Under the pieces are notes generated by a model. That model saw only the letters and a list, made by a program, of their open reading frames with translations. It had not been told where the DNA came from and made no database searches. Below, piece by piece: positions 11,908-58,636 of a stretch of 64,000 nt of DNA. The DNA comes from Candidatus Binatia bacterium (lineage in GTDB: Bacteria; Desulfobacterota; Binatia; UBA9968), in assembly GCA_036004365.1 (NCBI GenBank), contig DASYRN010000045.1:7637-71636 (forward strand), read 5' to 3'. Position 1 is the stretch's first letter. Each line of letters begins with the position of its first letter. The translations under genes and the position numbers were made by a program.

Positions 11908-12153
11908 ATGGAGCAGCGAGAGGAAGAGCTGATCGTCTCTCTTTTGGACAAGGATGCGGAGCTGAAGAAATATTATGAAGAGCATCAGGAACTAGAGAAA
12001 AAGCTCTCGCTTTATCAGCATAAACCTCATCTGAGCGCGATGGAAGAAGTAGAGAAGAAAAGGCTTCAGAAACTCAAGCTTTTAGGAAAAGACAAAATCA
12101 TGGAAATTTTGGAGAGATACCGGCATGGACGAGCCCAAGGAGAAGCGAAATGA
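11908..12153 (+). CDS. DUF465/YdcH-like small coiled-coil protein
   Basis: 81 aa. HQELEKKL...LQKLKLLGKDKIMEIL. RBS AGGAGG. ATGA overlap with ilvB. Confidence 0.6.
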   Translation: MEQREEELIVSLLDKDAELKKYYEEHQELEKKLSLYQHKPHLSAMEEVEKKRLQKLKLLGKDKIMEILERYRHGRAQGEAK

Positions 12154-13928
12154 AAAAAACCGGCGCTGAGATATTTGTTGAGTCGCTCAAGCAGGAAGGT
12201 GTCAAAGTCGTCTTCGGCATCCCCGGAGGAGTCGTTTTAAAAATCTTTGATGTGTTGCACCAACAAAAGGACGTTGAAGTTATCCTGACCCGGCATGAAC
12301 AGGGTGCCGCCCATATGGCCGAGGGGTATGCGAAGGCGACAGGAAAGGCAGGAGTCGCGCTGGTGACTTCCGGCCCGGGAATGACCAACATCGTGACCGG
12401 TCTGACCGATGCTTTCATGGATTCAGTGCCTCTGGTTGCTTTTACCGGCCAGGTCTCGACTAGCTTGATCGGCAACGACGCCTTTCAGGAAGCGGACAAC
12501 GTGGGGATCAGCCGTCCCTGTACAAAGCACAACGTCTTGGTCAAAGACGTGAATGATCTGGCGCGCACCATCAAAGAAGCGTTTTACATCGCCACGACCG
12601 GGCGGCCCGGACCGGTGTTGGTCGATATTCCAAAAGATGTCAGCACCGAGAAGGCGGAATTCAAGTATCCGGACAAAGTGAGCCTGCGCGGTTACAATCC
12701 GACCTACGAGGGAAACAGATATCAGATTCGGCAGGCAGCCGAAGAGATCATGAACGCCAAGAAGCCGGTGATCTATGTCGGAGGCGGGGCGCTCTTTTCC
12801 GACGCAGCCGATGAGATCCTGGAATTGGCGGACATGACGCAAATTCCGGTCACGATGACGCTTATGGGCTTGGGAAGCTTTCCGGGAACTCACGCGCTTT
12901 CCATGGGAATGCTAGGCATGCACGGCGGTTACTGGACCAACATGGCGATGCATCAGGCCGATTTGCTCATCGCCGTTGGGGCGCGGTTTGATGACCGCGT
13001 CACCGGGAAGCTGTCCGATTTTTGCCCTGAGGCTAAGGTCATCCATATCGATATCGACCCGACTTCGATCAAGAAGAATGTCTTTACCCACATCCCCATC
13101 GTCGGGGATGTGAAGGCGGTGCTGCGGCAGCTCAATATCGTTCTGCGGTCGTTGGACGGCAATCAGGCTGAGCTCAAGGAAAGGCGGCGCCCCTGGCACA
13201 AGCAGATCGAGGAGTGGAAACGGGCCCACCCGCTGCGCTATCACCAGGACACCAAGATCACCAAGCCGCAGTACGTCATCGAGAAGCTCTACGAGATCAC
13301 CCGACACGATGCGATCGTCGCCACGGACGTCGGCCAACATCAGATGTGGGCCGCGCAGTATTTCAAGGGAACCAAGCCGCGGACCTTTCTCACCTCAGGC
13401 GGTCTGGGGACGATGGGATTCGGCTTCCCGGCCGCGCTCGGCGCGCAGAAGGCATACCCGGACAGGCTGGTGCTCTGCATCACGAGCGAGGGCAGCTTCC
13501 AGATGAATCTTCAGGAGCTGGCCACCGCGCAGGAACATAAGCTTCCGGTCAAGATCGTTTTGCTCAATAACGGATTTCACGGGATGGTGCGCCAATGGCA
13601 GGATCTCTTCTACGAAGGCCGTTATGCCGCCAGCTATCTTGGAAAACTCCCGGACTTCGTCAAGCTCGCCGACGCCTATGGCATCCGCGGCCTGCGCGCG
13701 GAGAAACCTTCCGAGGTCGAGTCGGTCATCCGGGAGGGGCTGAAGCACAAAGGCCCTGTGCTGATGGATTTTCAGGTTGACCCGTACGAAAACTGCTACC
13801 CGATGATCCCGGCGGGTGGCGCCCACCATGAGATGGTTCTCGAAGATCCACCCGAACTCAAGACCGCACGAAAGGGCGGAGTAGCAAAAAAGAAGGTTGA
13901 GGAGGGGGAAGGCGTTCTGCCCGCCTAG
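12150..13928 (+). CDS. ilvB: acetolactate synthase large (catalytic) subunit
   Basis: 592 aa. ThDP-enzyme text GIPGGVVLKIFD and GLGTMGFGFPAALGAQ. Confidence 0.95.
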   Translation: MKKTGAEIFVESLKQEGVKVVFGIPGGVVLKIFDVLHQQKDVEVILTRHEQGAAHMAEGYAKATGKAGVALVTSGPGMTNIVTGLTDAFMDSVPLVAFTGQVSTSLIGNDAFQEADNVGISRPCTKHNVLVKDVNDLARTIKEAFYIATTGRPGPVLVDIPKDVSTEKAEFKYPDKVSLRGYNPTYEGNRYQIRQAAEEIMNAKKPVIYVGGGALFSDAADEILELADMTQIPVTMTLMGLGSFPGTHALSMGMLGMHGGYWTNMAMHQADLLIAVGARFDDRVTGKLSDFCPEAKVIHIDIDPTSIKKNVFTHIPIVGDVKAVLRQLNIVLRSLDGNQAELKERRRPWHKQIEEWKRAHPLRYHQDTKITKPQYVIEKLYEITRHDAIVATDVGQHQMWAAQYFKGTKPRTFLTSGGLGTMGFGFPAALGAQKAYPDRLVLCITSEGSFQMNLQELATAQEHKLPVKIVLLNNGFHGMVRQWQDLFYEGRYAASYLGKLPDFVKLADAYGIRGLRAEKPSEVESVIREGLKHKGPVLMDFQVDPYENCYPMIPAGGAHHEMVLEDPPELKTARKGGVAKKKVEEGEGVLPA

Positions 13929-23032: not shown

Positions 23033-23352
23033 GTTCGATTAGCGGCGGATCTGTGTCCAGCCTGATAGGACCTATTTCCCCTTGCGGTAACACAACACGC
23101 ACCGATTTTTTGCAGTCCTAATTCCTTGCACCTGGGTGAATATTACCCTTCTTGACAGCTTGATCTCTCTCAAATATCGTCAAGCTATCATTCTTCAAGA
23201 TTAGTATTCGGTGGTATGAGTGACGGCCGAATTTTTTTTGCTTTAGGACTGCATCGTAGGTGGTCAGTGGAAATTTCCGCGGATAGAAACGGCCGAAAAC
23301 AAAAAATGAGCAGAACAACGGAATCCACATTGAATTAGTTGAGGAGGTAAAA

Positions 23353-23604
23353 ATGCCACTTTTTATGGACATCCACAGGAAAGCAGACGGAATAACGTCC
23401 CAAGCGCTCGCCGAGGCACACCGTAAGGATCTTGCCGTGCAGGGAAAGCACGGCGTCAAGTTCGTCAACTACTGGTACAATGAAGGCGAGGGCGCGATTT
23501 TTTGTTTGTGCGAAGCTCCAAGTAAAGAGGCGGCTGAAGCGGTACATCGCGAGGCTCACGGTGAGTTAGCAGACGAAATCATCGAGGTTAAAGAGGGGTC
23601 GTAG
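23353..23604 (+). CDS. DUF4242 (SCO4226-like) small protein
   Basis: 83 aa. MPLFMDIH...A..AH..DL..Q.KHGVKFVNYWYNE..G.IFCL.EAPS.EA. Strong RBS GAGGAGG. Confidence 0.7.
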   Translation: MPLFMDIHRKADGITSQALAEAHRKDLAVQGKHGVKFVNYWYNEGEGAIFCLCEAPSKEAAEAVHREAHGELADEIIEVKEGS

Positions 23605-23791
23605 CAAGCTGAGGGAGCCATGAAACGATCCGCAGGTTCTTCGATCACCCACAGAAAAGCGGTCAGCCCTTGAAAACATGAATTCTGCTTTGCTGAGGCT
23701 GCGCTGGCACGAGGCCGGTTGATCGAGTATCCGAGCATCCTGAATCGATTCCGGGTTTCCGAAGCCCTTCCCTGTTTCACCGCCGTTCAAC

Positions 23792-24025
23792 ATGACCCTT
23801 TGCAATCACACAACGCTCGAACTGTTACCTGAAAAGAAAAAAAGAGTGCGGTGCCGGCACTGCCACCTGATCCTAGACGGCGAGGAGCTGGGAGATGGCT
23901 ATTGCCCGGAATGTTTTGAGACGTCCGGCAAGAAGCAATATGACTTCGAGGATATGGAACCCGAAAGGGGAGGGGTCGCCCGCTACAGATGCGAAGAGTG
24001 CGGTGCCATCGTTGAAAGCGCGTAG
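23792..24025 (+). CDS. zinc-ribbon protein (three or four CxxC pairs)
   Basis: 77 aa. CRHC...CPEC...CEEC. Confidence 0.5.
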   Translation: MTLCNHTTLELLPEKKKRVRCRHCHLILDGEELGDGYCPECFETSGKKQYDFEDMEPERGGVARYRCEECGAIVESA

Positions 24026-24133
24026 TAAACTACTTGGCGCTACTGTGCCATTGAGTTTGTCTCGGACAAACTGTGATCAGGAGGACGGGTTCACAGATCA
24101 GTCAGGCAGCAAAAACCGCATGGCGAACAAGGA

Positions 24134-24295
24134 TCAGTAGCTTTCCACCGGTGATTGGGGGCGGATCTCTCCTGTGATCGGATCTTCACCCTCAACAGGT
24201 GGCCCGCCTCGCTTTTTCTCTGCCTTGCGCTGCTGGCGGCGAGCGACCTTTTCTATTTGCTTCTGCCGGCGCGCCATCTCCTTCTGGCGTTTCAT
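24134..24295 (-). CDS. possible 53-aa Lys/Arg-rich protein (below the ORF-track cutoff)
   Basis: Hand translation gives MKRQKEMARRQKQIEKVARRQQRKAEKKRGGPPVEGEDPITGEIRPQSPVESY. It competes with + ORF 24155-24382. Confidence 0.3.
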   Translation of the reverse strand: MKRQKEMARRQKQIEKVARRQQRKAEKKRGGPPVEGEDPITGEIRPQSPVESY

Positions 24296-24383
24296 GTAAG
24301 TTTGATTTCCCATACGGATAGATTAACACATACCAAAGGCAACAGGAACCGCCTCTTCAAAGAAAGCCGCGTTAAAGTATAAA

Positions 24384-24410
24384 GGGGCGTACTGATCTAC
24401 GCCCCTTTTT
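24384..24410. terminator. intrinsic-terminator hairpin (GGGGCGTA-loop-TACGCCCC) flanked by A and T runs, usable from both strands
   Basis: AAAGGGGCGTACTGATCTACGCCCCTTTTT lies immediately downstream of the RRM gene. Confidence 0.6.
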
Positions 24411-24431
24411 GCTTAGATTCTACAAGATAGG

Positions 24432-24746
24432 CTACCAGCGGTCGCGCCTGCCACCTCCACCGCCACCCCTTCTATCCCCACCGAACCCTGACCGCTTCTC
24501 CTGAGGCCGCGCCTCATTGACAGTGAGATTGCGCCCGTCGAACTCGGTTCCGTTCAGAGCCTGGATCGCTTTCTGGGCCTCCGCGCCGGAGCTCATCTCG
24601 ACAAAACCAAAGCCCTTGGACCGGCCGGTGAATTTGTCGGTGATCACCCGGGCGGATTCGACGGTGCCGTGCGCCGAGAATAGTTCCTCGAGCTGCTTGT
24701 CGGTGGTCGCGTAGGACAATCCACCTACGTAGACTTTATTCGTCAT
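24432..24746 (-). CDS. RRM (RNP-1) RNA-binding protein with Gly/Arg-rich tail
   Basis: RNP2 VYVGGL, RNP1 KGFGFVEM and a C-terminal GGDRRGGGGGGRRDRW tail. ATG at 24746 after AAGGAGG. Confidence 0.85.
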   Translation of the reverse strand: MTNKVYVGGLSYATTDKQLEELFSAHGTVESARVITDKFTGRSKGFGFVEMSSGAEAQKAIQALNGTEFDGRNLTVNEARPQEKRSGFGGDRRGGGGGGRRDRW

Positions 24747-25307
24747 GTTCTCCTCCTTTAGAAAAATGTTAGTGTCTTTCACCCTGGAATCTGATTACCG
24801 CGGGAGCAGAACATGGGGTTGGAACCCAGCGCTGGCCGGATTATCCTCCAAGGTAATACTTCGCAAGGAAAGACTCCCCCCGAGCCTTAAACTTTTATCT
24901 GTCTCACTTTCAGAAGGCCCCATACTGAAGTGACTTTAGCTTGTCTTGTTTGCCCTCTCGGTGCAACGGAGCCGGGCGCGTCCTTTATCGTGCAGACGAC
25001 GGCTCGACACGAGCCCAAGTCACTATCATTCTAGGGTCGTCCGACGCAAGAGGTAGGCGGCGCGCAAGAAAACGTTGGAACAGAATGCGCAAAGAGGCCA
25101 AGAGCTTTTTGAGCGATATAAAGGGGTGTAGGAAGCCTCCGATAGTGCCTATTAATGTCGTGTTAATGGAAGGGGAGGTTGGGTCCTCCAGGAACCAAGC
25201 ATGCTTTATGAAACGCGATCGTATCCTTTCGATGGTGGTCTCTGGGTCCGACCAGCACCTAAGGCGCATCGACTCCGGAAGAATTATTTTAACCAACCGG
25301 CGACCGT

Positions 25308-25321
25308 TTGAGAATTCTCAA
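25308..25321. repeat. 14-bp perfect palindrome TTGAGAATTCTCAA, copy 1
   Basis: Read directly. Shared flanks are CG-TTT on the left and GA(A)G(G)TCAAAA on the right. Confidence 0.9.
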
Positions 25322-25613
25322 GAAGGTCAAAATGAACAAACGCGTCAAAGATGACGTTTTTGCAATTGCGAGAGTACGAAAATGTGGTTTGAAGCCTGTC
25401 TAGCGGATCTTCTTTTATAAACGCAGTGGATGTCTGTCAAGTAGGAAAAAGGAAAAAAGGGGAGGATTTCCGAAATATCCAAAAAGCCGCGATCGTGGTC
25501 GTGAAATGTGATCAGGCAGCAGGCCGCGTTGGCGGAATAGCAAGGCAACCGATTTAATCGAGGTTTAAAAAAAAAGCTTGACAGCCCGCGCGACCGCGAT
25601 ATACCTAGGTCCC

Positions 25614-25901
25614 ATGACCGGCATGGAACTCATAAAGCTCAGAAAGCGACTGTCTATGACGCAAACCAGTCTCGCCCGCGCCGTCGGAATGAAGAGAAAA
25701 TCGGTCATTCTCATGGAGCGGGGAGAGGAGCCCATCTTAAGGACCACCGAGCTGTCGGTGAGGCTGCTGCTGCTGAAGAAGCAAGCTGCGAGGTTCGTAT
25801 TGCGGATAAAAGGGAGAAGACGCTATAGGCCCCGGCCGCGGCAAAACGGAGCTTCACTGTCAGAAATCTTGTCGCATCTTTCTACAGATAGACGGGAATA
25901 A
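25614..25901 (+). CDS. XRE-family helix-turn-helix protein
   Basis: LIKLRKRLSMTQTSLARAVGMKRKSVILMERGEEP. TTGACA at 25578 and TATACC at 25600 sit directly upstream, so the transcript may be leaderless. Confidence 0.65.
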   Translation: MTGMELIKLRKRLSMTQTSLARAVGMKRKSVILMERGEEPILRTTELSVRLLLLKKQAARFVLRIKGRRRYRPRPRQNGASLSEILSHLSTDRRE

Positions 25902-25989
25902 TCCTGACTGGCTTGAGGAGAAAAAAAAGAGACAGGCCATTTTTTCGTTGAAAACGGAAAGCTGACAACGGAAAAAGCTGCCAGCGTTT

Positions 25990-26229
25990 TCATTCCTTTC
26001 GGGCCTTTTCTCCACTTTCCCGTATTCTCTTACCGGCCTCTTTCATTGCCTCGCCGGCTTTTTCCATCGCTTGACCCGTTTGTTCCTTGGCCTTCTCCAT
26101 TGCTTGATCGACAGCCTTGCCCGTTTTTTCCATAGCACCTTTATCGTCTTCGGATTTTGAGCAGGAGCCCAAGGCAAGCGCAGACAGTCCGACGAGCAAT
26201 GCCAGGCACACGTTTTTGATCAGCTTCAT
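25990..26229 (-). CDS. small lipoprotein with AMEKxG(K/E)A repeats
   Basis: Signal peptide plus lipobox MKLIKNVCLALLVGLSALALGSC. RBS GGAGGG. Repeated KAVDQAMEKAKEQTGQAMEKAGEAMKEAGK. Confidence 0.55.
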   Translation of the reverse strand: MKLIKNVCLALLVGLSALALGSCSKSEDDKGAMEKTGKAVDQAMEKAKEQTGQAMEKAGEAMKEAGKRIRESGEKARKE

Positions 26230-26384
26230 TTGTCGGTTACCCTCCTCGTCCAAGTCTTAGTCTAATCCCTATAATAAAAACTCTTGGCACACAAGAAAGG
26301 TTTCTTGACAATCTGGAAGGTTGCGGAATGGGTTGGTTCTCTTAATGTCACAGGGGTTAAAATCCCGTCGGGATGCCACTGGCA

Positions 26385-26666
26385 TCAGTCGGATGCCTTT
26401 GGTTTCGGCGGCCCCGGATATCGGGTAGCAGCCTGGTTTGAAAAGCCATCTAATGCGGCGAGTTGACGCGCGAGGTCGAAGATGGTGTTCTCGATGGCCA
26501 TCCTGGAGGCCTCAATCTCATCGAGCGTTGATCGCGCTATCCCTACCGCTTCCACGAGCTTTACTCCCTCGGGCCGCCTTGCCAGTATCGTGAGACGGTA
26601 ATCGGCCTGGAAAACGCGCCAGTTGAGATAGACGCTTCGCACCTCAGCCTGTAGGTCTGAGGACAT
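26385..26666 (-). CDS. hypothetical protein, possibly the 3' part of a degraded gene
   Basis: 93-aa ORF. The reading frame stays open upstream of the ATG and neighbouring frames carry related-looking text (see findings). Confidence 0.35.
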   Translation of the reverse strand: MSSDLQAEVRSVYLNWRVFQADYRLTILARRPEGVKLVEAVGIARSTLDEIEASRMAIENTIFDLARQLAALDGFSNQAATRYPGPPKPKASD

Positions 26667-27091
26667 ATACCGGATCGAAACGGGAGCAGCGGGATCGTCC
26701 TCCAGGACGTAGAAAAGCGCCCGGCCGACGTGGTACTCCCCCCACTTAACTCCGGAGTATCGACACTTCCCACAGCTCGGCGAGAGCCGGATCGACCTGC
26801 ACCTTTACCCTTCGCTCTGGCGGAAGCTGGTAGCGCTGGTCGAAGAGGACCGTTTGGCCTCAGGCGCCAAGCCCGAGCGAAAGGAAAAACAAAGTGAAAA
26901 GGGAGGTCTTGCTCATGAGACGATCTGCAATTTCTTAGCATCTCTCCTAAAAGAGTAAAAGCCCCCGCAAGATAAAGGATGAAGGATAAGGGAAAGATGC
27001 TCATAAGACAGCGGACTTTCGGGGCCGTTCAAAGAATTTTGCTGGTGGCCACATCGAAGCTGTGCTATGTTGGTATGAAATTTTGAGAGCG

Positions 27092-40444: not shown

Positions 40445-41518
40445 ATGTCAGGCGAAAGTTTCCGTGGCGAGATCGGACTCCACTTTCCGTTGCATGTCCT
40501 TAACCGCTACTCTCTCCCCGAGCTGATCCGCCTTGCGGAACGCGCTGTGGAGGCACTTCGACAGTTCGGCTTCACGCAGATCTGGACCAACGATAATCTA
40601 GAGTATCGAAGCGTTTTGGCGAGCTCCGCTGCACTCGTGGCGCGGGTTCCGGTCAAGCTCGGAACGGCCGTCACCGTTCCCTATTTTCGCAACCCCATCG
40701 ATCTGGCCGCGGCGTTCGTCACTCTCTCCGAACTCACAAACGGGCAGGAAATCTCGCTTGGCCTGGGACCCGGCTCGAGGTCGATCCTGACCCATCAAGT
40801 CGATCGTGTGAAGCCGCTGATCATCATGGCCGAGTTGGCGACGGCTCTGCGGAAGCTCTTCGATGGAAAGGCAATCGGGCGCAATGAAATTCCGAATTTG
40901 GCTTCCTATTTTCACTTGAACGCGGAAAGTTACACTTTGCGCTTCAAGGCCCAGTCGCCGATCCGGCTTTACTATGGTCCAAGCCTGCTCAAGCCCGCGG
41001 TCTTAAATCTAATCGGATGCCACTTCGATGGGGTCATCCTGCAAACTCTGTATAGCGGGGCGGATATGGAGGCTACGCTCTCGAGTCTGAAACGTGCCCG
41101 CGCACAGTCCGCTCTAAGGGAGCCGCTAGCTAAAATCATGCTTATCAACGCGTCCGTTTCTCGCGACGGACGGGCGGCGAGAGAGCACGCCAAGCGCTTC
41201 GTGTCCCACATCATCGCCGGATGGCCGGACGACACCCTCCAAAGGAAAGGCATTGACCCAGCCTCCGTTCAGTCGGTGCGCCGAGCCTACGCTCAGAACC
41301 GCGGAGTGGATTATGCGGCGTCGCTGACTCCGGAGGAAGCGGTGGACCGTCTGGTCGTCGCTGGCACGCCGGAGCAGTGCATCGAACGGATCTCCGAACT
41401 CTTTTCCACCGGCGCGAAGCACGAATTCGGGCAGATCTTTATCGGCGTGCCACTTGGACCCGATGTCGGTGAAGTGATCGATATCTGGGCTAAAGAGATC
41501 CTGCCGGCTCTTTCGTAA
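40445..41518 (+). CDS. LLM-class (luciferase-like) flavin/F420-dependent oxidoreductase
   Basis: 357 aa. TIM-barrel LLM-type text (FTQIWTNDNLEY...LGTAVTVPYFRNP...GLGPG). Confidence 0.75.
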   Translation: MSGESFRGEIGLHFPLHVLNRYSLPELIRLAERAVEALRQFGFTQIWTNDNLEYRSVLASSAALVARVPVKLGTAVTVPYFRNPIDLAAAFVTLSELTNGQEISLGLGPGSRSILTHQVDRVKPLIIMAELATALRKLFDGKAIGRNEIPNLASYFHLNAESYTLRFKAQSPIRLYYGPSLLKPAVLNLIGCHFDGVILQTLYSGADMEATLSSLKRARAQSALREPLAKIMLINASVSRDGRAAREHAKRFVSHIIAGWPDDTLQRKGIDPASVQSVRRAYAQNRGVDYAASLTPEEAVDRLVVAGTPEQCIERISELFSTGAKHEFGQIFIGVPLGPDVGEVIDIWAKEILPALS

Positions 41519-45175: not shown

Positions 45176-46579
45176 TTAAGGTTTATCGTTCGGGACGAGG
45201 AGTCGGGCGAGCTTCCCGGCGTCTTCGAGCCTGTCTAGACTTTCAATCGTATCTTGGAGTTCGTCGATACGGGACGGCGAAAGGACTCGCGAGGCAAGCA
45301 GGCGAAATTTTTCGCTGACCTCGACGCGTGTCATGGGATGCTTATCACTTCCCTTGGCGTGAAGCACTTTGGCCCCGTAGCTCTTCCCGTCTCTCGTCTC
45401 GACCTCTAGAATCACGCCGTGGCGCCCTTCGTCTCCTAGGGCCTCGAGCTCGGTATCTTCAACCACCTCGATCTTTTTCGTCGTATTCAGGACGTCAGCC
45501 CTGTTTATGGATTTCTCCGTCACCTGATCGACGAAGAAGTCCCGGTCGTGGAGCAACACCGCAACACAATAAAGAAGATTCATTTGCGCCGTGGTCAGGC
45601 TGTTCGGCACATAAGGCCAACCGACATGAAGCTTGGTGGCGCGGGTTGTGCGGATGGTGATTTTTTCCGCGTTCTCCGCGCTTACGTCGGGGTGCTCACG
45701 GAGAATTTTCTTGAGCGCATCGATCGAAGTGTGATTGCTGCCGCAGCAAGGATAAGGTTTGAAGCCGACGTTCAGGGCCTCGAACCGTTCGCCAAGATCT
45801 CGCGTCAGGTGGGATAGGTTGGGATTGTCGCAGAAGGTCGAGCAGAAGCCTCCATAAGGCGCTTCGAGAATATCCTCGATTCCGGTAAATCCCTTAGCGG
45901 CGAGCAGTGCTCCGTACACACCTGCCTGTGATGCCCTACCAGGGTGCATGCGCTTTACCATCGAAGCTTGTTGGGCAGCCATAAGGCCCGCGGCCTGAGT
46001 GCCAGCGATTCCCAAGGCGTGGAGTGTCTCTGACGGATCAAGTCCAAGCATTTTTGCCGCCGCGGCTCCAGCAGCGAAGGTTCCTGAGGTGGCCGTAGGG
46101 TGGAAGCCCCGGCGCAACTGGGAAGCGCCCCCTGTCATGGCCACGCGGCAGCCTGCCTCATAACCAGCGATTACAGCCGTAAGGAATCTCTTGCCGTCTG
46201 TCGCGCCGTCGTAGCGTACCAGGGCATCTGCCGCAGGTATCGCTTCGGCGCCCGGGTGGATGACGCCGACGCGGTGAAGATCGTCCATTTCAAAGCTGTG
46301 GATCAAGGTACCATTGGCCAACGGCGCGCTCGTGCTGGGAACCTCTGCGCCATCGCCCCAGAGAAGAGCCCCTTTGCCCGCGCCTAGCTCCTTTGCAAAG
46401 CCTGTGATGATTTTTCCCCAAGGAAGGGTCGAGCCGAAAAGGGCGCATCCGAGAGAATCGAGTAGGCAGAGCTTGACGTGTGAGATGACCTCTCCGGGAA
46501 TATCACTGTACGAAAGCGACGATACAAACTGCGCGAGAGCGCGGGTGGGCGAGGTCTCTGGGCTTTGACTCGTTAACAT
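45176..46579 (-). CDS. MmgE/PrpD family protein (2-methylcitrate dehydratase-like)
   Basis: 467 aa. LLDSLGCALFGS...AEAIPAADAL...HPTATSGTFAAGAAAAKMLGL. Confidence 0.85.
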   Translation of the reverse strand: MLTSQSPETSPTRALAQFVSSLSYSDIPGEVISHVKLCLLDSLGCALFGSTLPWGKIITGFAKELGAGKGALLWGDGAEVPSTSAPLANGTLIHSFEMDDLHRVGVIHPGAEAIPAADALVRYDGATDGKRFLTAVIAGYEAGCRVAMTGGASQLRRGFHPTATSGTFAAGAAAAKMLGLDPSETLHALGIAGTQAAGLMAAQQASMVKRMHPGRASQAGVYGALLAAKGFTGIEDILEAPYGGFCSTFCDNPNLSHLTRDLGERFEALNVGFKPYPCCGSNHTSIDALKKILREHPDVSAENAEKITIRTTRATKLHVGWPYVPNSLTTAQMNLLYCVAVLLHDRDFFVDQVTEKSINRADVLNTTKKIEVVEDTELEALGDEGRHGVILEVETRDGKSYGAKVLHAKGSDKHPMTRVEVSEKFRLLASRVLSPSRIDELQDTIESLDRLEDAGKLARLLVPNDKP

Positions 46580-46664
46580 GAGGTTCGATCAACCGGATAG
46601 ATTTTGCCCATCCTCTTATTGTATACGTGGTTCTGTCAAGGCCCAGGAACACGAGGGAGGAAAA

Positions 46665-47735
46665 ATGCGCCTGCAAAAGTGGTCTCTGGTTGGGGTGATC
46701 CTGGCGATCTTCGCTTCTCCCCATCGCAGCTATGCACAGTCGGCCGGAGAGATCCTCAAGCGCTACGAAGGGCTGAGCCCAAAGCAGCGCCAGGAAAAGC
46801 TCGTTGAGGGCGCGCGGAAGGAAGCAGCAGTCGTGATTTACAGTTTTACCGCAGTCGACCAGCTCACGCCATTACTTGAAGAATTCTACAAGAAATACCC
46901 GTTTGTTAAACCAGAGCACTACAGGGCCAACGCCTCAGGCGTTTTTAATAAGTTTATCACCGAGGCGCGCGCCGGCCGGACCCTGGCCGATGTGCTCGAT
47001 ATCTCGGCGGGCGAAGCCTATACCCTACGCCAGATGGGACTCGTCGATCCTTATTCTTCTCCCTTTAGAGAAGGGATTCCAAAAGATTTTCTGGACGAGC
47101 GAGGGTATTGGGCCGCGCATTACCACTTCGTAGTCGCCTTGGGCGCTAATACCAGAGCCATCAGCGCCTCGGAGGCACCGAGAAGCTACGGAGAGCTACT
47201 CAACCCGAAATGGAAAGGGCGCTTCTCGCTGGATCCCGCTGATCAAGATCTTTTTGGTGCGCTGCTGATGTATTGGGGGAAAGAGAAGACGCTTGACTAT
47301 TTTAAAAATCTCGCAAAACTCGAACCCCGGATGGTCACCGGCCACACGCAACAAGCCAATCTCGTTGGGTCGGGCGAGATTCACATGGCTCCGTGGCTTT
47401 ACGGCTATCGTCCGCTTCAATTAAAGGACGAGGGAGCTCCGGTTGAGGTCTTTCTCTTTGATCCTGTTCTCACCAACCCCGCTTATCTTTTGCTGGCGAA
47501 GAATTCTCCTCACGCTCACGCGGCCGCGCTCCTGATCGATTGGGCTCTTTCCGCTGACGGAGGGATGAAGTTTTTTGCCGAGAAATTCGGTCGAACGCCT
47601 ACTCGGCCGGGACTCAAGGAGAGGTTTCCACAACTTCGGGTGGAGAAATACCTCGTCGTCAAACCCGAAGTCGTCGGGCCAAACTTCAAAGAGTTCACCA
47701 AGGTCTATAACGAGATTTTTGCGATTGGTAAGTAG
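46665..47735 (+). CDS. periplasmic solute-binding protein (SBP family 1, iron(III)/polyamine-like)
   Basis: ATG at 46665 after GAGGGAGG, with a signal peptide. Paralogous to 50047-51171 (KKYPFVKPEHYRA.. vs KKYPFVKVMVWRS..). Confidence 0.75.
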   Translation: MRLQKWSLVGVILAIFASPHRSYAQSAGEILKRYEGLSPKQRQEKLVEGARKEAAVVIYSFTAVDQLTPLLEEFYKKYPFVKPEHYRANASGVFNKFITEARAGRTLADVLDISAGEAYTLRQMGLVDPYSSPFREGIPKDFLDERGYWAAHYHFVVALGANTRAISASEAPRSYGELLNPKWKGRFSLDPADQDLFGALLMYWGKEKTLDYFKNLAKLEPRMVTGHTQQANLVGSGEIHMAPWLYGYRPLQLKDEGAPVEVFLFDPVLTNPAYLLLAKNSPHAHAAALLIDWALSADGGMKFFAEKFGRTPTRPGLKERFPQLRVEKYLVVKPEVVGPNFKEFTKVYNEIFAIGK

Positions 47736-47741
47736 GGAGGT

Positions 47742-48677
47742 TTATTTTTTCCCGCGAAAACGGAACAGTTCGACGAGCTTTCGCCGAACCACCTCCTCGC
47801 CGCCCGGCAGGATGTCAAACTTTGTTGTGTTATCCATCTTTTGCATTATTTTCCGGCCTTCGTCATCTTGATGCATCGAAAGCAAGGTCTCCTGAAGACG
47901 CTTGGCCACCTCCGGATGCAAACCCCTGCGAATAGAAACGAGATGGCGTGGAACCGTCTCCGTTTCGGCCAGGATAGCGATCTCGGCCCTTGCTTTCTCG
48001 TCAAGCGTGGCGTAGTCGTCATCGCTAAACGCACCAGCCATCACCTTCTTTGAGAGAAGGAGGTCAGCGATATTTTTGTGTGTAGAGGCAAAGATGTAGC
48101 CAATCTCCTTAGGAGAAACCTTGGCTTCGAGCCCGGGTTTTTCGGTAAGTCTGAATCCCTTCCTTAGAAGGAAGACCTTTGGCAAAAGATAGGCTGAAGT
48201 AGACCCGGGATCCTCGAAGGCGATGATCTTACCCTGTAGGTCTTCAAGCCGGGCTATGCCGCTCTCTTTGCTCGTGGCAAGGATGCCTCGATATTCGCCC
48301 TTCCCCCCCTTCCAACGCCTGAGCAACAATCTCGCGGACCCTTGCCTGTTGATGAGATAGGTCGGATAGGGGCTTTCCATATAAAAATCAACCCGCTTCT
48401 CCTCAAGCAGCTTTGCGAGTTGTAGCGCTGTCGGAGCCACAACAACCGTTCCTTTGATCTCGGAAGTGGAGGAGAGTTTTCGCGCGACATAACCCACAAA
48501 ATCGCGGAAATGCTCCTCGATCTCCTTCTGATGTATTTGAGAGACGAGTCCTAAAGAGATCGTTTTAACTGTGCCGGTCTCCGGCGCCTGTCCGGCAGCT
48601 TCAAGCTCAGGGGTTAGGAGAGAAACAAGAGCGGCAACGGCAAATATGAGGGAGGCATGATGTGTGTGTCTCTTCAT
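47742..48677 (-). CDS. PhnD-like (phosphonate/phosphite-type) solute-binding protein
   Basis: 311 aa with a signal peptide. ISLGLVSQ....EEHFRDFVGYVARKL resembles PhnD-type SBPs. Confidence 0.65.
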   Translation of the reverse strand: MKRHTHHASLIFAVAALVSLLTPELEAAGQAPETGTVKTISLGLVSQIHQKEIEEHFRDFVGYVARKLSSTSEIKGTVVVAPTALQLAKLLEEKRVDFYMESPYPTYLINRQGSARLLLRRWKGGKGEYRGILATSKESGIARLEDLQGKIIAFEDPGSTSAYLLPKVFLLRKGFRLTEKPGLEAKVSPKEIGYIFASTHKNIADLLLSKKVMAGAFSDDDYATLDEKARAEIAILAETETVPRHLVSIRRGLHPEVAKRLQETLLSMHQDDEGRKIMQKMDNTTKFDILPGGEEVVRRKLVELFRFRGKK

Positions 48678-48965
48678 GACGACCTGTCACAGCCGGGAAT
48701 TTGCCGCGGGAGAACCCGAGAGCAATGGCGAACGACAAAGCCCACGCTACGTATATATAAACGAGGCAAACTTGGCAAGAATGAAAACAGATTCGGAAGC
48801 ACCTGGTGTCGCAAATCCTCGCCAAACGCCGAAACGACTCCGGGGAGGCCGGCTGTTTCACACCGGTGTATGAGGTCAGTGGACAGGCACGGAGAGGTTG
48901 TAATATAAGCAGTCTTGTCGTGGCTGCCGGGCGATTGCGGCGACACCAAAATCGGAGGTGAGATC

Positions 48966-50027
48966 ATGTGGTACAAAGCGAAGGCGCTCGATTTATTCGG
49001 AGTGGCGTTGGGATTCGGCTGCTTAGTGATTTTTCCCAAAGACGCTTTCTCTCAGGCCGGCTACTACCAGGGGAAGACCATCACGATTGTTCGGGGCGGG
49101 GAACCGGGGGGCTCAGGGGATATGCAGGCCAGGGCGTTGATACCGTTCCTCAAAAAACATATTCCCGGGAATCCGAATATTATCGTGGAGAACATGCCCG
49201 GCGCCGCCGGGATGAAAGCGGTCAACCATATTTATACGGCGAAGCCCGATGGGCTCACGATCACCGCCGTCGGCTCCGGCCTCGCCGCAGGCCCGATCCT
49301 CGGCTTGCCGGGAGTAAAATACGACATCGATAAGCTGATTTATCTGGGGTCGACGGAGCATGGCGATCCCTATGTCTTTTTAAGCCGGAAAGAAGCCGGT
49401 TTCGACAGTCTGGAAAAGCTGCGTGCTGCGTCGGGGATCAGGCTCGGTGCGCAAACCGTGGGCCACGCGGTTTATATTAGCGGGCGTATCTTCGCGCATC
49501 TTCTGGGTCTCAAGGATCCCAAGGTCGTTGTCGGCTTTGGAGGACCAGAGCTCGACATCGCTTTGGCCCGAGGCGAGGTTGACGCCAGAGCGAACAGCGC
49601 GGATACGGTGGTGCGCAGAAACGCCGATGCGCTGGAAAAAGGTCAGTTCAACATTCACGCCACCATCACGATTCCAAAAGGGAAGTTTCACCCGCGCTTC
49701 GCGAACGTCCCCGATGTGGAGACGCTTGCTAAAAACGACAAAGAGCGCCAACTGGTAAATCTGTTCCGCGCGTTTCTCTATCCGCGTTGGCCTTACGTGC
49801 TGCCGCCAGGCACCCCCGCGGAAATCGTCAAGGTCCTGCGCGAAGGGATGGTCAAGGCCTTTAAGGACCCGGGTTTTCACCAGGAATTTAAAAAACTCAT
49901 GGCGAGCGATCCATCCCCTCTCACCGGAGAAGAGGTGGAGACATCCATTAGAGAGCTGCCGCGCGATCCCGAGGTCATTGGACTATATAAAAAGATGGCC
50001 GAGCATGGACCGCTGCCGCCGCGCTAG
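48966..50027 (+). CDS. Bug/TctC-family tripartite tricarboxylate transporter solute-binding protein
   Basis: YYQGKTITIVRGGEPGGSGDMQARALIPFLKKHIPGNPNIIVENMPGAAGMKAVNHIY. ATG at 48966 after GGAGG. Confidence 0.8.
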   Translation: MWYKAKALDLFGVALGFGCLVIFPKDAFSQAGYYQGKTITIVRGGEPGGSGDMQARALIPFLKKHIPGNPNIIVENMPGAAGMKAVNHIYTAKPDGLTITAVGSGLAAGPILGLPGVKYDIDKLIYLGSTEHGDPYVFLSRKEAGFDSLEKLRAASGIRLGAQTVGHAVYISGRIFAHLLGLKDPKVVVGFGGPELDIALARGEVDARANSADTVVRRNADALEKGQFNIHATITIPKGKFHPRFANVPDVETLAKNDKERQLVNLFRAFLYPRWPYVLPPGTPAEIVKVLREGMVKAFKDPGFHQEFKKLMASDPSPLTGEEVETSIRELPRDPEVIGLYKKMAEHGPLPPR

Positions 50028-50046
50028 GGTGGGCATTTCCTTTCAT

Positions 50047-51171
50047 CTATCTCCTGCTGATGAAGAGCTGCCGCATTAGAGCTTCCCACTCAGCAAATCT
50101 CTTCTCATACTCTTCGAGAGAGTATTTGGCCTCGAGGTAGGTTTTCTTGAATTTCGTCTCCAACGAGCCGATGTCGCTCCGCGGCGAGTTCAGGCCGCCT
50201 TTCATCGCAACTTGCTGTCCCTCTCTTGAATGGATGTAGTCAAGGAAAAGAAGCGCAGCATGGGGATGGGGAACCTTGTTGAGCAACCCGGACTTGCCGA
50301 CGCTCGCAATCACCGGCTCTAAAGGACGCCACTCGACGGGAGCTCCCTTCTGCCTGGCCGTGGTGATATTGGAGTCGAAGATTGTGGGAGAAAGCGGCAC
50401 CTCGCCAGAGGCCACGAGACCTGCCAGCGCCGCTCCCGACATGTTTTGGACGTTCACCTGCTGTTGGCTCATCTTTTCGAGAAACTCGCGGCCCATCCCC
50501 TCCAGCAGATTTCCCACCCACTGGACCCCCGTAGTCGTGCCGGCAATGGACATTTTTCCCTTCCATTTGGGATCGAGGAGATCTTTCAGGCTCCGAGGCG
50601 CCTCGGCCGGCGGCACGAGCTTGGTGTTGAATCCCAGACTGATATAGATCTCTCGATTCGCCCAATAAACAACGCCGTTTTTTCCTTTCGTCTTCACTTC
50701 GTCGCCATAAAAAGCCATCTCAGGCGAATAGTGTTCTTGGAGCATGTCGTTTTTATGCAACAGCGCCATGTATTCAGGGCTCGTCTCCAAGACGTCGGCG
50801 ATGAGGCGGCCTGAGGCATATTCCTCTGTGACACGCTTGAGCAATTCCTTAGAGTCGCTGCGCCATACCATGACCTTAACGAACGGGTATTTCTTTTCGA
50901 ATGCCTGGGGCAACGCGCTCGCCATCCACGTGTTCGATGTGTAAAACGTCACTTGTCCTTCTTTCTTGGCCCCTTCGATCAAGAGCGGCTCCCTGTCGCG
51001 GCCTTGATAAAGGGCGATCTCGGCAAGCGCTTTGGGCTTACTGGCGGTCGCTGCAAGGCCTGGGGTTGGCAGCGACAGGAACCCGGCCGTCAGCAGAGAG
51101 CCTGCCACTATGAAAAAGCGCGAAGATTGGAAGCGGGCAAACCGGCAAAGCATAAGAAAGCATCCTCCCAC
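50047..51171 (-). CDS. periplasmic solute-binding protein (SBP family 1), paralogue of 46665-47735
   Basis: 374 aa with a signal-like N-terminus (start may be 51153). Confidence 0.75.
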   Translation of the reverse strand: MGGCFLMLCRFARFQSSRFFIVAGSLLTAGFLSLPTPGLAATASKPKALAEIALYQGRDREPLLIEGAKKEGQVTFYTSNTWMASALPQAFEKKYPFVKVMVWRSDSKELLKRVTEEYASGRLIADVLETSPEYMALLHKNDMLQEHYSPEMAFYGDEVKTKGKNGVVYWANREIYISLGFNTKLVPPAEAPRSLKDLLDPKWKGKMSIAGTTTGVQWVGNLLEGMGREFLEKMSQQQVNVQNMSGAALAGLVASGEVPLSPTIFDSNITTARQKGAPVEWRPLEPVIASVGKSGLLNKVPHPHAALLFLDYIHSREGQQVAMKGGLNSPRSDIGSLETKFKKTYLEAKYSLEEYEKRFAEWEALMRQLFISRR

Positions 51172-51197: not shown

Positions 51198-51845
51198 CTA
51201 AAATTTCTTCCACGGGTTGATCCCCAACTCTACATGCTTTCGGTATAACATGGCTACATAGATAAAATCGAAAATGAATATGGACACATAAAGAAAGTTC
51301 AGAAGAACCGAGGCGGGAAAGCGAAGAAAAAACAGTATCGACGGCAATAAAGTTCCGAGCATCTTAAATAAGGCTATATAAATCGACTGGCCACTCACGT
51401 CTCTCCGATTCAGCAGCATCGATATAAACAAAACAGACATCATAAGATTTTGCCCGAAGGCTGCGTACTTGCCGTCCCAGTCTTTGAACTCATAGGTTAT
51501 GGCCAGGATGGCGCCAAAACTTAGGATTAGCGTTACAAGGAAAGTAAGATAGAAAAAGCGCGCCGGCAGTATTTGATTCAAGGCCTTCCCTCCGAAGCGG
51601 AGAGTTTGAAAGACGATGATCGTATCAAAGGCAAACCAAGCGATATTGATATAATTCTGAGGAGGCTCGTGCGGGTGCATGAAGGAAAATATAAATTCCC
51701 AGGAGATATTCGCCGATAGAGCCGCTACCGGCATCCCATAAGTCTTGTCCTGGAATCCCACTCGGAGGATCAAGATATAGGCCAAGGTCCAGAAGACTCC
51801 CGATCCGATCTGCAAGCTCAAGCTTATCTCAGGAGGAACCGCCAT
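51198..51845 (-). CDS. multi-pass membrane protein resembling PaxB/Pyr4-type transmembrane terpene cyclases (tentative)
   Basis: 215 aa with about 6-7 TM helices. FWTLAYILILRVGFQDKTYGMPVAALSANISWEFIFSF resembles W..NY......F.DETYGM....L..NI.WE of fungal PaxB as I recall it. Confidence 0.5.
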   Translation of the reverse strand: MAVPPEISLSLQIGSGVFWTLAYILILRVGFQDKTYGMPVAALSANISWEFIFSFMHPHEPPQNYINIAWFAFDTIIVFQTLRFGGKALNQILPARFFYLTFLVTLILSFGAILAITYEFKDWDGKYAAFGQNLMMSVLFISMLLNRRDVSGQSIYIALFKMLGTLLPSILFFLRFPASVLLNFLYVSIFIFDFIYVAMLYRKHVELGINPWKKF

Positions 51846-52091
51846 AACATACCGCTTTTGCGGATGCTAACTTACTCTCCCCGTTTTTAGCAATGACGGC
51901 CAGCATGAAAGGTAGAGCGTTGGTATCCGTAAGCCGCTTCATCTAAGTCATTTCGACATTTCGGGAATTCTCGAAGCATGGAAGCGTGGCAGAAGCTCCC
52001 GCTGGAATTGAATGTGCGGGCGGCAGCGGCGGGTGTCGTCAACTATGTCGGTGCAAAACGATGGCGAAGATGAGAGAATGCGCCGGGAACG

Positions 52092-53183
52092 ATGCGCATC
52101 GTCGTGCATGTCGATATGGACGCGTTCTACGCCGCCGTGGAGGAGCGGTACAATCCTCAATTGCGCGGCCTTCCTGTGGTCGTAGGAGCCGACCCTAAAG
52201 AAGGAAGAGGACGAGGCGTGGTGACGACGGCCAACTACACGGCGCGCAGGTTCGGCATCCACTCGGCCCTGCCGATCTCACGCGCGTGGCGGCTTGCAGA
52301 AGCCGCTCGGAAGCGAGGCGAGCCCGCAGCGGTCTTCATCCGGACGAACTTCCAGCTGTATGGGGAGGTTTCGGCCCGCATCATGCAGATTCTCGAAAGC
52401 CGGGCCGATTCTTTTGAAGAGGCGAGCATCGATGAGGCCTATCTCGAAATCTCATCGCTTGGGAGCTTTGAGGTCGCAGTAGGGCACATGAGTGCGTTAA
52501 AGACCGAGATCCGGGACAAGGAGGAGCTTAGCTGCTCCGTCGGCATCGGTCCAAACAAGCTTATCGCCAAAATTGCCTCGGGCCACAACAAGCCTGACGG
52601 CCTCACCGTTGTGAGGCCGGAGCAGGTCCAGGAGTTCCTCGATCCTCTCCCTATCCGCGTGATTCCCGGCATCGGGCCCAAGGGCGAGGCCTTCCTCCAC
52701 GAGCAAAAGATTCAGACCGTAAAAGAGCTGCGGGAAATTCCCGGCTCAAAGCTCATGGACTGGTTTGGAAAATGGGGTCATAGTCTTTTTGAAAAGGCTC
52801 GGGGCGTCGATGACTCACCGGTTTCAAACGAGTGGACGAGAAAGTCGGCGGGCGAGCAGGAAACATTCGATCAGGACACCCGAAGCCTTTCTTTTGTTAC
52901 CGAGCGGCTTTATGCGATCGCCGAGCGGGTCATCGGCAAACTCAGGGAAAAAGAGTTCGCCGGTTTCCGCACTGTCACCTTGACGGTGCGCTTTTCCGGT
53001 TTTGAAACTAAGAACCGTTCCCGCAGCTTCAAGAATGGAATCGTGCTCGACAACGATGGAGTGGCGCTCCAACTCCTCAAGCAGGAGACCCTAAAACTCG
53101 TACTTCCTTTTTTCGACTCGCGGGAAAACCCGCGGGGAAAGGCGATCCGGCTCATCGGCCTCCGCCTGGAAAAACTTTTCTGA
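52092..53183 (+). CDS. dinB: DNA polymerase IV
   Basis: 363 aa. IVVHVDMDAFYAAVEERYNPQLRGLPVVVG and SIDEAYLE. Confidence 0.9.
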   Translation: MRIVVHVDMDAFYAAVEERYNPQLRGLPVVVGADPKEGRGRGVVTTANYTARRFGIHSALPISRAWRLAEAARKRGEPAAVFIRTNFQLYGEVSARIMQILESRADSFEEASIDEAYLEISSLGSFEVAVGHMSALKTEIRDKEELSCSVGIGPNKLIAKIASGHNKPDGLTVVRPEQVQEFLDPLPIRVIPGIGPKGEAFLHEQKIQTVKELREIPGSKLMDWFGKWGHSLFEKARGVDDSPVSNEWTRKSAGEQETFDQDTRSLSFVTERLYAIAERVIGKLREKEFAGFRTVTLTVRFSGFETKNRSRSFKNGIVLDNDGVALQLLKQETLKLVLPFFDSRENPRGKAIRLIGLRLEKLF

Positions 53184-54584: not shown

Positions 54585-55511
54585 TCAGGAGCGCCAAAGG
54601 TTGCGGAACCGGACAGCCACCACTTGGTCGTAGGGCACCGGGCCGGGCAGCAGGCCGGCGGATTGGGCGAATCGGTTGAGCCCAGCGATGGCCTCTTCGG
54701 AGATGACGGGATCGTAGAAGGGCAAGTCCCGGTCGACGATCGGTGCAATTAGCTCCGCAGCCTCCGGAGGAAAGCGGCGCCGCCCCACCTCTGCGGCCTG
54801 CGCTGGTTCTGCCCGGAGGGCTCGTTGAGTTTTCACGATGGCTCGGACAGCTGCCGCGGCGCGCTCCGGGTCCCGCGCGATCAGCGTCTCAGTCGTGGCG
54901 AGCGCAGCAAACGTGAAGTGGCGGACTTCGGCTGGGTCATCGCCGCGCCGCACATCGAGGAGGATCTTGCCCACACCCCGCCGGACCGCGGCCTCGCTAC
55001 CCATCGCGTTGGCCCAGAAGCCATCGATCTGGCCCGCCTCCAGAGCGCGGGCCGCGAACACGCCAAAGGAGACATCGCGCGCCCGGGAGCCCGGCAGCTC
55101 CACGATCTGCAGCTCTAGGTCCGGATCGATTCCGGCATCGATCAGCATCTGTCGTAGCGCCAGGTCGGGTCCCTCCGCCGCCGTGAGCCGAAGCCCCTTC
55201 AACGCCCGAATGTCGCCGCGCTTTGCGGGGAGATCGGCACGGACGACGAGAAGCCAGGGGGTCCCTTGGGAGAGGGCCACGATCAGCTTCGCCCCTTGCC
55301 AGCGGGGAAACGCCGTCAAGAGGTCATGCACCGAACCGGCGACCATGGCATCTGCGGCGCCGTCCCGCAGCGCTTTAGTCGCCCCAAGCATGGGGAAGAG
55401 TTCCACATGGGCATCCAGACCCTCGGCACTGTAGAAGCCTAGCTCCTCAGCGGCGAGCGCGGGGAAACAGGTATTGCTGACGAGGTCGACCGCTGCGATG
55501 CGCATGTGCAC
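54585..55511 (-). CDS. NMT1/SsuA-like substrate-binding-fold protein without obvious signal peptide
   Basis: 308 aa. Locally higher GC. Text ...LRLTAAEGPDLALRQMLIDAGIDPD.. resembles nitrate/sulfonate/bicarbonate-type SBPs. Confidence 0.6.
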   Translation of the reverse strand: MHMRIAAVDLVSNTCFPALAAEELGFYSAEGLDAHVELFPMLGATKALRDGAADAMVAGSVHDLLTAFPRWQGAKLIVALSQGTPWLLVVRADLPAKRGDIRALKGLRLTAAEGPDLALRQMLIDAGIDPDLELQIVELPGSRARDVSFGVFAARALEAGQIDGFWANAMGSEAAVRRGVGKILLDVRRGDDPAEVRHFTFAALATTETLIARDPERAAAAVRAIVKTQRALRAEPAQAAEVGRRRFPPEAAELIAPIVDRDLPFYDPVISEEAIAGLNRFAQSAGLLPGPVPYDQVVAVRFRNLWRS

Positions 55512-57697: not shown

Positions 57698-58636
57698 TTA
57701 GACCATGGGGAGCACTTCCTGTGCCAACCAGTCCAATCGTTTTAAAGTCTCTGCCGGACCAGGACTCCGGACATCGAAAATAAGGCAATTCACTCCAGCC
57801 TTTTGATAGTCTCTCACGTCGGATGCGACCTGCCCCGCGCTGCCGATGAATCTTCTTCGTCGCCCCGCCTGAGCTTCGACTTCCCGATCAAACAACGAGG
57901 CTTTGAAAGCTACGCGGATTTCGCTCGGATTCCTGCCTGCCGCTTGAGCGTACTCAGCGAGTGTTTCCAACTTTCTTTCAAGATCTGCCGGTTCCAGAGG
58001 TACGGTCGGCACGCCTCCTATGGGATGCCATCCATCCCCTAACTCAGCGGCGCGGCGCAGAGCCCGGTTGCTATGCCCTCCGATCCAAATCGGAATGTGA
58101 GGCTTTTGCGCTGGCTTCGGTAGAAATGCCAAGTCGGAAAACTTGCAATAAGTGCCCTTAAAGGTGGGATTCTCCTTTGTCCAGAGCTCCTTAAAAGCTT
58201 TAATGTATTCGTCCGTAACACGGCCACGATCCTCAAACGGAGGAGCTCCAACAAGCAGGAATTCTTCTTTCATCCATCCGACTCCCAATCCCAGAATCAC
58301 TCGGCCGCCTGAAAGGAAGTCCAGGGTTGAAAGCATCTTGGCGACAACGACAGGAGGGCGATAAGGGGCAATCATGACGCTGGCGACGAAGGAGATGCGC
58401 TGAGTGGCGCTGGCAAGAAACGCCATGACCGTCATTTGATCGAGATGATGACCTTTTCCGGGATACTTCTTGTCTACAGTATAAGGATAAGGGGAAGCGA
58501 TGTTTCTCGGGATGACGATGTGATCAGCGACGGTTACACAGAAAAAATCCAATTCCTCCGCGCGCTTAACGAAATGGATCAGATCTTCGGGTTTTACTCG
58601 GGGGTCGGACACAGCTAGGTGAAGCCCATAGTCCAT
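57698..58636 (-). CDS. LLM-class F420-dependent oxidoreductase
   Basis: 312 aa. VADHIVIP......LDQMTVMAFLASAT.RI.F..SVMI.PYRPP...AK.L.TLD.LSGGR..LG.GVGW fits the LLM family. Confidence 0.8.
   Translation of the reverse strand: MDYGLHLAVSDPRVKPEDLIHFVKRAEELDFFCVTVADHIVIPRNIASPYPYTVDKKYPGKGHHLDQMTVMAFLASATQRISFVASVMIAPYRPPVVVAKMLSTLDFLSGGRVILGLGVGWMKEEFLLVGAPPFEDRGRVTDEYIKAFKELWTKENPTFKGTYCKFSDLAFLPKPAQKPHIPIWIGGHSNRALRRAAELGDGWHPIGGVPTVPLEPADLERKLETLAEYAQAAGRNPSEIRVAFKASLFDREVEAQAGRRRRFIGSAGQVASDVRDYQKAGVNCLIFDVRSPGPAETLKRLDWLAQEVLPMV

Follow-up and report, generated by a model that had tools for sequence, protein, structure and literature searches.

What would a membrane terpene cyclase do in a genomic region that offers it no terpenoid pathway? 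The question is raised by a 215-codon open reading frame (ORF) on the minus strand of a 64,000-nucleotide stretch of the Candidatus Binatia assembly GCA_036004365.1 (contig DASYRN010000045.1, forward-strand positions 7,637 to 71,636; hereafter, the whole stretch is referred to as the window), where the ORF list and its translation place it at 51198..51845. A sequence-only reading of this DNA had noticed the 215-aa (amino acid) protein, leaving its strand unstated, and had proposed a bacterial homologue of the fungal PaxB/Pyr4-type transmembrane cyclases with no biosynthetic neighbours. Both parts of that proposal held, and the protein belongs to a widespread clade of standalone homologues. The coding sequence runs from an ATG at 51843-51845, which is favoured as the start because homologues keep the N-terminus MxV(S/P)PE, to a TAG at 51198-51200; the opposite (plus-strand) frame over the same interval is riddled with stops. 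A protein database search returned a sequence with 100 % identity (P0001), recorded as a 'hypothetical protein' of a Candidatus Binatia metagenome-assembled genome (MAG).

Its sequence places the protein firmly within the Pyr4 family. On the Pfam model PF25129 (Pyr4-like transmembrane terpene cyclases) it scores 104.5 bits (gathering cut-off 27; E value 9e-30), residues 9-198 covering profile positions 18-209 of 227, and this score, together with 1297 homologues at E<=1e-3 in a database of 5.8 billion proteins, puts the family match far beyond chance. PF25129 was the sole Pfam model listed at E<=10, no NCBIfam model matched the protein, and sequence searches of the PDB gave no meaningful match for the single protein and 0 matches for a profile of its clade. 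Direct comparison by hhalign of 38 bacterial and archaeal clade members with 13 fungal ones, the curated NodB and DpmaB among them, returned Prob 99.0 and an E value of 4.6e-18 over 187 columns. The sequence-only reading had suggested a profile comparison of this kind and had allowed for placement in an unrelated membrane-protein family; the sequence profiles lead unambiguously to the Pyr4 family. The fungal sequences were obtained with a Pyr4 query, and solely database-returned sequences were used afterwards, namely an Aspergillus fumigatus fragment (P0274, 99 % identical to the query), a Penicillium orthologue (P0272, 85 %) and the curated NodB (P0284) and DpmaB (P0283). Aligned jointly with these four, the window protein shows 20-23 % identity to them.

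The AlphaFold2 model, which rests on a 38-sequence alignment (pLDDT 90.4, pTM 0.84), contains seven predicted helices (residues 5-33, 40-56, 63-89, 95-119, 126-146, 155-175 and 180-206), in line with the 'about 6-7' transmembrane (TM) helices counted earlier. Such a compact, all-membrane architecture of 215 aa and seven helices fits the Pyr4 family, for which about 200-250 aa and no soluble domain are expected. The charge bias of the loops is modest, but with loops 3-4 and 5-6 and the C-terminus rich in K/R it points to an N-out/C-in orientation.

Both residues of the Pyr4 active site as defined by mutagenesis, E63 and D218 (PMC6486709), have counterparts in the window protein. The equivalent of E63, the proposed Brønsted acid, is E50 in the middle of TM2 (codon GAA, 51696..51698, minus strand; alignment A3). 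It aligns with E63 of P0272 and P0274 and with E62 of NodB and DpmaB, and is invariant in 38 clade members, with Asp in its place in two more distant relatives; a Glu is also named as the catalytic acid in the Supporting Information (SI) of Kakumu & Helfrich (JACS 2026). The second active-site acid, D218, is matched in the alignment by D193 in the middle of TM7 (codon GAT, 51267..51269, minus strand), which aligns with D218 of P0272 and D217 of NodB and DpmaB and is likewise invariant in the clade. The predicted catalytic dyad, E50 and D193, is intact in the protein, and Y23, N46, R147, G152 and S154 are invariant in 20/20 aligned sequences (clade and fungi). The string that had first drawn attention to the gene, FWTLAYILILRVGFQDKTYGMPVAALSANISWEFIFSFMHP, is present in the translation as residues 18-58 (51672..51794, minus strand); it comprises the C-terminal part of TM1, a cytoplasmic loop and TM2, and holds W19, Y23, G37, N46, W49 and E50, which are (nearly) invariant in the clade and the fungal cyclases. 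The family motif cited in support of it needs a correction: real fungal sequences read D(R/Q)TYGM, not DETYGM, and the catalytic acid is the Glu of N-x-A/S-W-E (Pyr4 E63) rather than a residue of D-x-TYGM.

Close relatives of the protein are widespread. The best 120 of the homologues are all 198-255 aa long, most of them 212-215 aa, and a profile search against 1.84 billion cluster representatives returned 1484 clusters at E<=1e-3 and 301 at E<=1e-30. With one genome taken per GTDB species, a pattern-seeded scan found a homologue in at least 201 species, the best 80 of them with 48-80 % identity over the full length. Bacterial carriers include Binatia, other 'Deltaproteobacteria' MAGs, Eisenbacteria, Anaerolineae/Chloroflexota/Caldilineales, Gammaproteobacteria MAGs and cultured Hymenobacteraceae (Pontibacter, Rufibacter, Adhaeribacter, Nibribacter and Botryobacter), as well as Nostoc, Planctomycetia, Bacillota (including the complete genome of Ca. 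Formimonas warabiya), Rubrobacteraceae, Trueperaceae and Fibrobacterota. Among the archaea, homologues occur in the ammonia oxidisers Nitrososphaera/Nitrososphaeraceae and Nitrosopumilus and in Ca. Methanoperedens; they are full-length and 53-58 % identical to the Binatia protein (loci L020, L021, L026, L028, L029, L031, L033, L035, L036, L038, L043, L045-L047, L049, L050, L061, L065, L068, L070, L073 and L081; match at about 10001-10640 in full-length loci). We found no mention of archaeal Pyr4-like proteins in the literature searched.

A neighbour-joining tree, calculated without bootstrap, showed the standalone clade to be tight, short-branched and grouped by taxon, with the archaea forming one group nested among the bacteria, and with the fungal cyclases, a Streptomyces homologue and a Clostridia variant outside it on long branches. 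This grouping by taxon, despite variable gene context, is consistent with a single gene kept by purifying selection for one conserved function. Taken with the retained dyad, it indicates that the clade is catalytically intact and slowly evolving across bacteria and archaea, and is not made up of degenerate copies. The Clostridia variant, found in MAGs (P0248 cluster, 109 members; 330 aa), has an N-terminal extension of ~70 aa and insertions and is 37-38 % identical to the clade; the family therefore reaches into Clostridia.

The gene context offers the enzyme no evident pathway. The absence of biosynthetic neighbours, claimed from the window alone, extends to 80 loci of other genomes. ORFs of >=150 aa were scanned from about -20 kb to +12 kb of the gene (window 31 to 64 kb), and none encodes a polyprenyl synthase, a UbiA/ABBA or aromatic prenyltransferase, a squalene/phytoene synthase, a squalene-hopene or oxidosqualene cyclase (SHC/OSC), a P450, a flavin adenine dinucleotide (FAD) epoxidase or a polyketide synthase (PKS). 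The scanned ORFs include PrpD, five orphan solute-binding proteins, DinB, a glyoxalase, two luciferase-like monooxygenases, an M48 peptidase, a pyruvoyl arginine decarboxylase, an S1/P1 nuclease, MlaD/PqiA and several without a Pfam match. Among these scanned ORFs, the window gene has no terpenoid partner of the kind by which gene clusters were recognised in JACS 2026 (within ±20 kb); the sole isoprenoid genes in the window, uppS (7158-7934) and dxr (8715-9869), lie >42 kb from it. Its immediate neighbours are the two that had been named before, a solute-binding protein gene (SBP_bac_11/SBP_bac_6; 50047..51171, minus strand) 26 nt downstream and a divergent DinB/Pol IV gene (52092..53183, plus strand). 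A functional pairing with the solute-binding protein gene was rejected, this adjacency being confined to the window's own species, as is that of dinB. A link to UV or DNA damage (dinB here, a spore-photoproduct lyase gene in Adhaeribacter) was likewise set aside as coincidence, resting on two unrelated loci only.

The same picture emerged from other genomes, for which the ORFs of 84 loci, about 1360 in all and lying no more than 20 kb from each homologue, were clustered all-against-all. The only families spanning taxon groups were generic ones (aldo-keto reductase, ABC ATPase, histidine kinase and SufS); beyond such generic paralogous families, no neighbour family was common to different taxa across ~80 loci. 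Tightly linked same-strand neighbours, annotated for 20 loci, are heterogeneous (GH5, ICMT/PEMT methyltransferase, GMP synthase, PHO4, ThrRS, PfkB, GDPD, spore-photoproduct lyase, HI0933 flavoprotein, PIG-L and short-chain dehydrogenase/reductase (SDR)), and the context shifts even within Pontibacter. We regard the gene as standalone in all loci examined because its linked neighbours are incoherent and no family is shared between taxa.

Some lineages have arrangements of their own. In Rufibacter (L037, L062, L064, L074, L079 and L084; ~10650-13000), two aldo-keto-reductase paralogues lie downstream of the cyclase homologue on its strand, one at 40-400 nt and the other at ~1.2-1.5 kb, a lineage-specific arrangement that could hint at a carbonyl-bearing substrate. 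At two Chloroflexota/Anaerolineae loci (L011:10673-11266 and its equivalent in L012), a gene for an ICMT/PEMT-family membrane methyltransferase lies 24 nt downstream on the same strand, with GH5 cellulase and NAD-epimerase genes upstream of the cyclase homologue. Two apparent fusions were discounted: P0253 joins a P450 truncated before the haem loop to the cyclase domain and is probably an artefact, and P0255 has a 280-aa N-terminal extension, suspected of being squalene/phytoene-synthase-like, that has no Pfam or PDB match and a single occurrence.

What, then, might the protein do? Our confidence is evenly balanced on the reading that it is an acid-initiated (class-II-like) membrane cyclase acting on a prenyl substrate that the cell already makes. 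If it works like Pyr4, PaxB, MfmH and MacJ, a prenyl chain would enter the membrane-embedded cavity, where E50, aided by D193 and a conserved shell of Y23, N46, W49 and Y196, would protonate a terminal olefin or epoxide; the resulting carbocation would be quenched after one or more ring closures. The characterised family members, more than 60 fungal and several bacterial, are all cyclases (JACS 2026). MfmH and MacJ cyclise unepoxidised prenyl chains, so a partner epoxidase is not obligatory. The idea that a Pyr4-family enzyme cyclises farnesyl diphosphate directly was not borne out: what the paper concerned shows is cyclisation of an unepoxidised farnesyl group that is already attached to a scaffold. 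As the gene is standalone everywhere, slow-evolving and common to bacteria and archaea, its substrate is most likely not the product of a dedicated cluster; a prenyl lipid already made by the cell is more likely, and speculation leads us first to a prenylquinone or another common polyprenyl compound. Four polar residues specific to the clade (D74, Q132, N133 and Q153) suggest that it may handle a head group or chemistry somewhat unlike that of the fungal meroterpenoid cyclases. The modification of lipids, hopanoids or carotenoids proposed in the sequence-only reading would be a speculative role.

Several points weigh against this assignment. No prenyltransferase, polyprenyl synthase, epoxidase, P450 or PKS gene is linked to the homologue in any of the 80-plus loci, and context therefore lends an isoprenoid substrate no support. 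Standalone members were judged 'unlikely involved in meroterpenoid biosynthesis' in the SI of JACS 2026. The prenylquinone suggestion is a speculative one, drawn only from the prenyl lipids that the very diverse hosts have in common, and it is not an obvious match for the gut Clostridia MAGs that carry homologues. Finally, the biochemistry proposed for standalone members is borrowed from their homologues.

A more far-reaching version of the cyclase reading, possible but unlikely in our estimation, would make the clade an ancient single-gene enzyme of bacteria and archaea that cyclises or acid-activates a prenyl lipid of primary metabolism, for example a respiratory prenylquinone or another ubiquitous polyprenyl compound, with the fungal and actinobacterial natural-product cyclases as its specialised descendants. 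If true, soil and sediment microbes, ammonia-oxidising archaea and Methanoperedens among them, would contain a class of cyclised membrane isoprenoids that has so far gone unrecognised.

The alternative that survives best arises from the fold. Searches of the PDB with the model returned the KDEL receptor and SWEET, matches that are limited to these because no solved structure of the Pyr4 family exists, and the predicted fold is of the SWEET/KDEL receptor type, with the 3+1+3 arrangement of seven helices that defines the PQ-loop/SWEET/KDEL-receptor superfamily. The KDEL receptor, SWEET and cystinosin are transporters or receptors, not enzymes, and one might suppose that the standalone proteins retain an ancestral function of this kind (transporter-, receptor- or scramblase-like), in which E50 and D193 would couple protons or bind the substrate, the cluster-borne cyclases being a derived, neofunctionalised branch. 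We consider this rather unlikely. The likeness is at the level of fold only (7-10 % identity, no Pfam or PDB sequence-profile match), and the PQ-loop, MtN3_slv and ER_lumen_recept models failed to match even at E<=10; no PF25129 member is known as a transporter, and the conserved residues are exactly the set needed for Pyr4 cyclase catalysis. Nor does the adjacent binding-protein gene help, as the pairing is seen in one species only and is missing in 72-80 % identical relatives, and the region has five orphan binding-protein genes anyway.

It is improbable, in our view, that the gene encodes an ordinary meroterpenoid or terpenoid cyclase of specialised metabolism whose partner genes lie elsewhere in the genome. 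The protein has the family and the active site of a meroterpenoid cyclase, relatives of ~40 % identity occur in Streptomyces (one of them named 'transmembrane-type terpene cyclase'), and our view is limited to 64 kb here and to <=20 kb around each homologue, which would leave room for an unclustered pathway. However, specialised-metabolite cyclases diverge fast and are lineage-restricted, whereas this clade keeps 48-80 % identity and short branches from Binatia to Nitrososphaera and Nostoc. Moreover, a terpenoid partner was found at 0 of ~80 loci from more than a dozen phyla, against 264 other bacterial homologues that have one, and the SI of JACS 2026 takes the same view.

Decidedly improbable is the reading of the protein as an acid-base enzyme of the membrane whose substrate is a lipid other than an isoprenoid, or a hydrophobic compound from outside the cell, as in epoxide opening or detoxification. 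Besides the standalone context, what speaks for it is a set of clade-specific residues without fungal counterpart: D74 in TM3, an invariant acid (codon 51624..51626, minus strand; alignment A3) replaced by Asn in the fungal cyclases, and Q132/N133 (codons 51447-51452, minus strand; alignment A3 columns), which mark the clade together with D74 and Q153. At D74, Q132, N133 and Q153, the fungal enzymes have N, C, F/Q and A/T, respectively. Occasional lineage-specific redox or lipid-modifying neighbours (the Rufibacter aldo-keto reductases, ICMT/PEMT in the two Chloroflexota loci and SDRs) point the same way; however, these neighbours are not common to different lineages, and a non-isoprenoid substrate has no precedent in the family. 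A role in forming the cyclohexane ring of crenarchaeol is very unlikely, given that the clade (55-58 % identity) occurs in bacteria without tetraether lipids and that the gene is patchy among archaea.

The composition of the gene gives no sign of recent arrival. Its overall GC content of 0.45 is low because of amino-acid composition, and recent horizontal transfer into the genome was rejected because the GC content at third codon positions (GC3), 0.59, lies inside the range of its neighbours (0.51-0.77). The 246-bp intergenic region shared with the divergent dinB (51846..52091, no strand assigned) presumably contains the promoter or promoters, a suggestion made from its position only; a consensus scan around the gene found no convincing sigma-70 promoter or terminator and nothing above shuffle expectation.

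Elsewhere in the window, five solute-binding-protein genes lie within 9 kb on both strands (46578-51171 and 54585-55511), belonging to the SBP_bac_6, Phosphonate-bd, TctC, SBP_bac_11/6 and NMT1 families, with no adjoining permease or ATPase genes. Two luciferase-like (flavin/F420-type) monooxygenase genes are found at 40445-41518 (~10 kb off) and 57698-58636 (~6 kb off); we dismissed them as partners, as such enzymes are not among the known terpenoid epoxidases and L001, a contig of the same species, retains just the 57698-58636 copy. A canonical housekeeping cluster, rpsB-tsf-pyrH-frr-uppS-cdsA-dxr-rseP, occupies 4278-10952, preceded by ribF, a pseudouridine synthase gene and rho (505-4086); as it includes dxr, the host uses the methylerythritol phosphate (MEP) pathway for isoprenoids, a point in favour of the reading with a prenyl substrate. 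The ~4 kb at 23100-27000 contain no ORF >147 aa, no tRNA and no Rfam match and are of unremarkable composition; they may hold many small genes or be non-coding.

Pyr4-type cyclases have been studied as natural-product enzymes, and about three-quarters of their bacterial and two-thirds of their fungal homologues were dropped from genome mining as standalone; the window gene is a clean example of this discarded majority. Its predicted catalytic integrity, slow evolution, span of two domains including cultured hosts and predicted SWEET/KDEL receptor-type fold make the standalone function experimentally approachable, and the cultured Hymenobacteraceae carriers are potentially tractable. Should the standalone proteins act on a prenyl lipid common in membranes, they would reveal both a new way of modifying lipids and what the family did ancestrally; should they be transporters instead, they would show the recruitment of a SWEET/KDEL receptor-type fold for carbocation chemistry. 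Annotation would gain from either outcome, because standalone proteins are now labelled 'hypothetical'.

Set beside characterised systems, the window protein shares family PF25129 with Pyr4 of the A. fumigatus pyripyropene pathway and with PaxB, NodB, DpmaB, AndB, AscF, MfmH and MacJ. The fungal enzymes are longer (~240 aa versus 215 aa) and have a longer TM6-TM7 loop; seven TM helices, the acidic pair (E63/D218, here E50/D193) and the W-x3-Y, TYGM and N-x-x-W-E blocks are common to both. Whereas the characterised fungal enzymes are clustered with a PKS or a PaxC/UbiA/DMATS prenyltransferase, and usually with an FAD epoxidase, the window gene is accompanied by none of these. The same difference separates it, when compared by description, from the prokaryotic XiaH (xiamycin), TylF (tolypodiol), DmtA1, GroF and ZigF (zigralone), which belong to the same family and have the same proposed Glu Brønsted acid but cluster with polyprenyl synthase, UbiA prenyltransferase and P450 genes.

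The closest counterparts are the genes that earlier surveys passed over. Of the 1107 Pyr4-like sequences that Kakumu & Helfrich (JACS 2026) found in bacteria, only 264, those that have terpenoid genes no more than 20 kb away on either side, were retained, and 69 % of these are actinobacterial; the window protein falls in the ~76 % of bacterial matches filtered out for want of terpenoid neighbours. Among fungi, 690 of 1050 pyr4-like loci are without another core gene (Tang & Matsuda). In the literature searched, standalone Pyr4-like genes are mentioned only to be excluded, and we found no paper citing PF25129 and none on the cross-domain clade (archaeal ammonia oxidisers, Methanoperedens, Hymenobacteraceae and Binatia) or its conservation. 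A known, Pfam-annotated family gains a member here, and the standalone situation is already on record; the novelty is therefore modest. Like the window gene, the standalone fungal, bacterial and cyanobacterial pyr4-like genes occur alone, with no core biosynthetic partner, and the Nostoc homologues fall into the same clade as the window protein.
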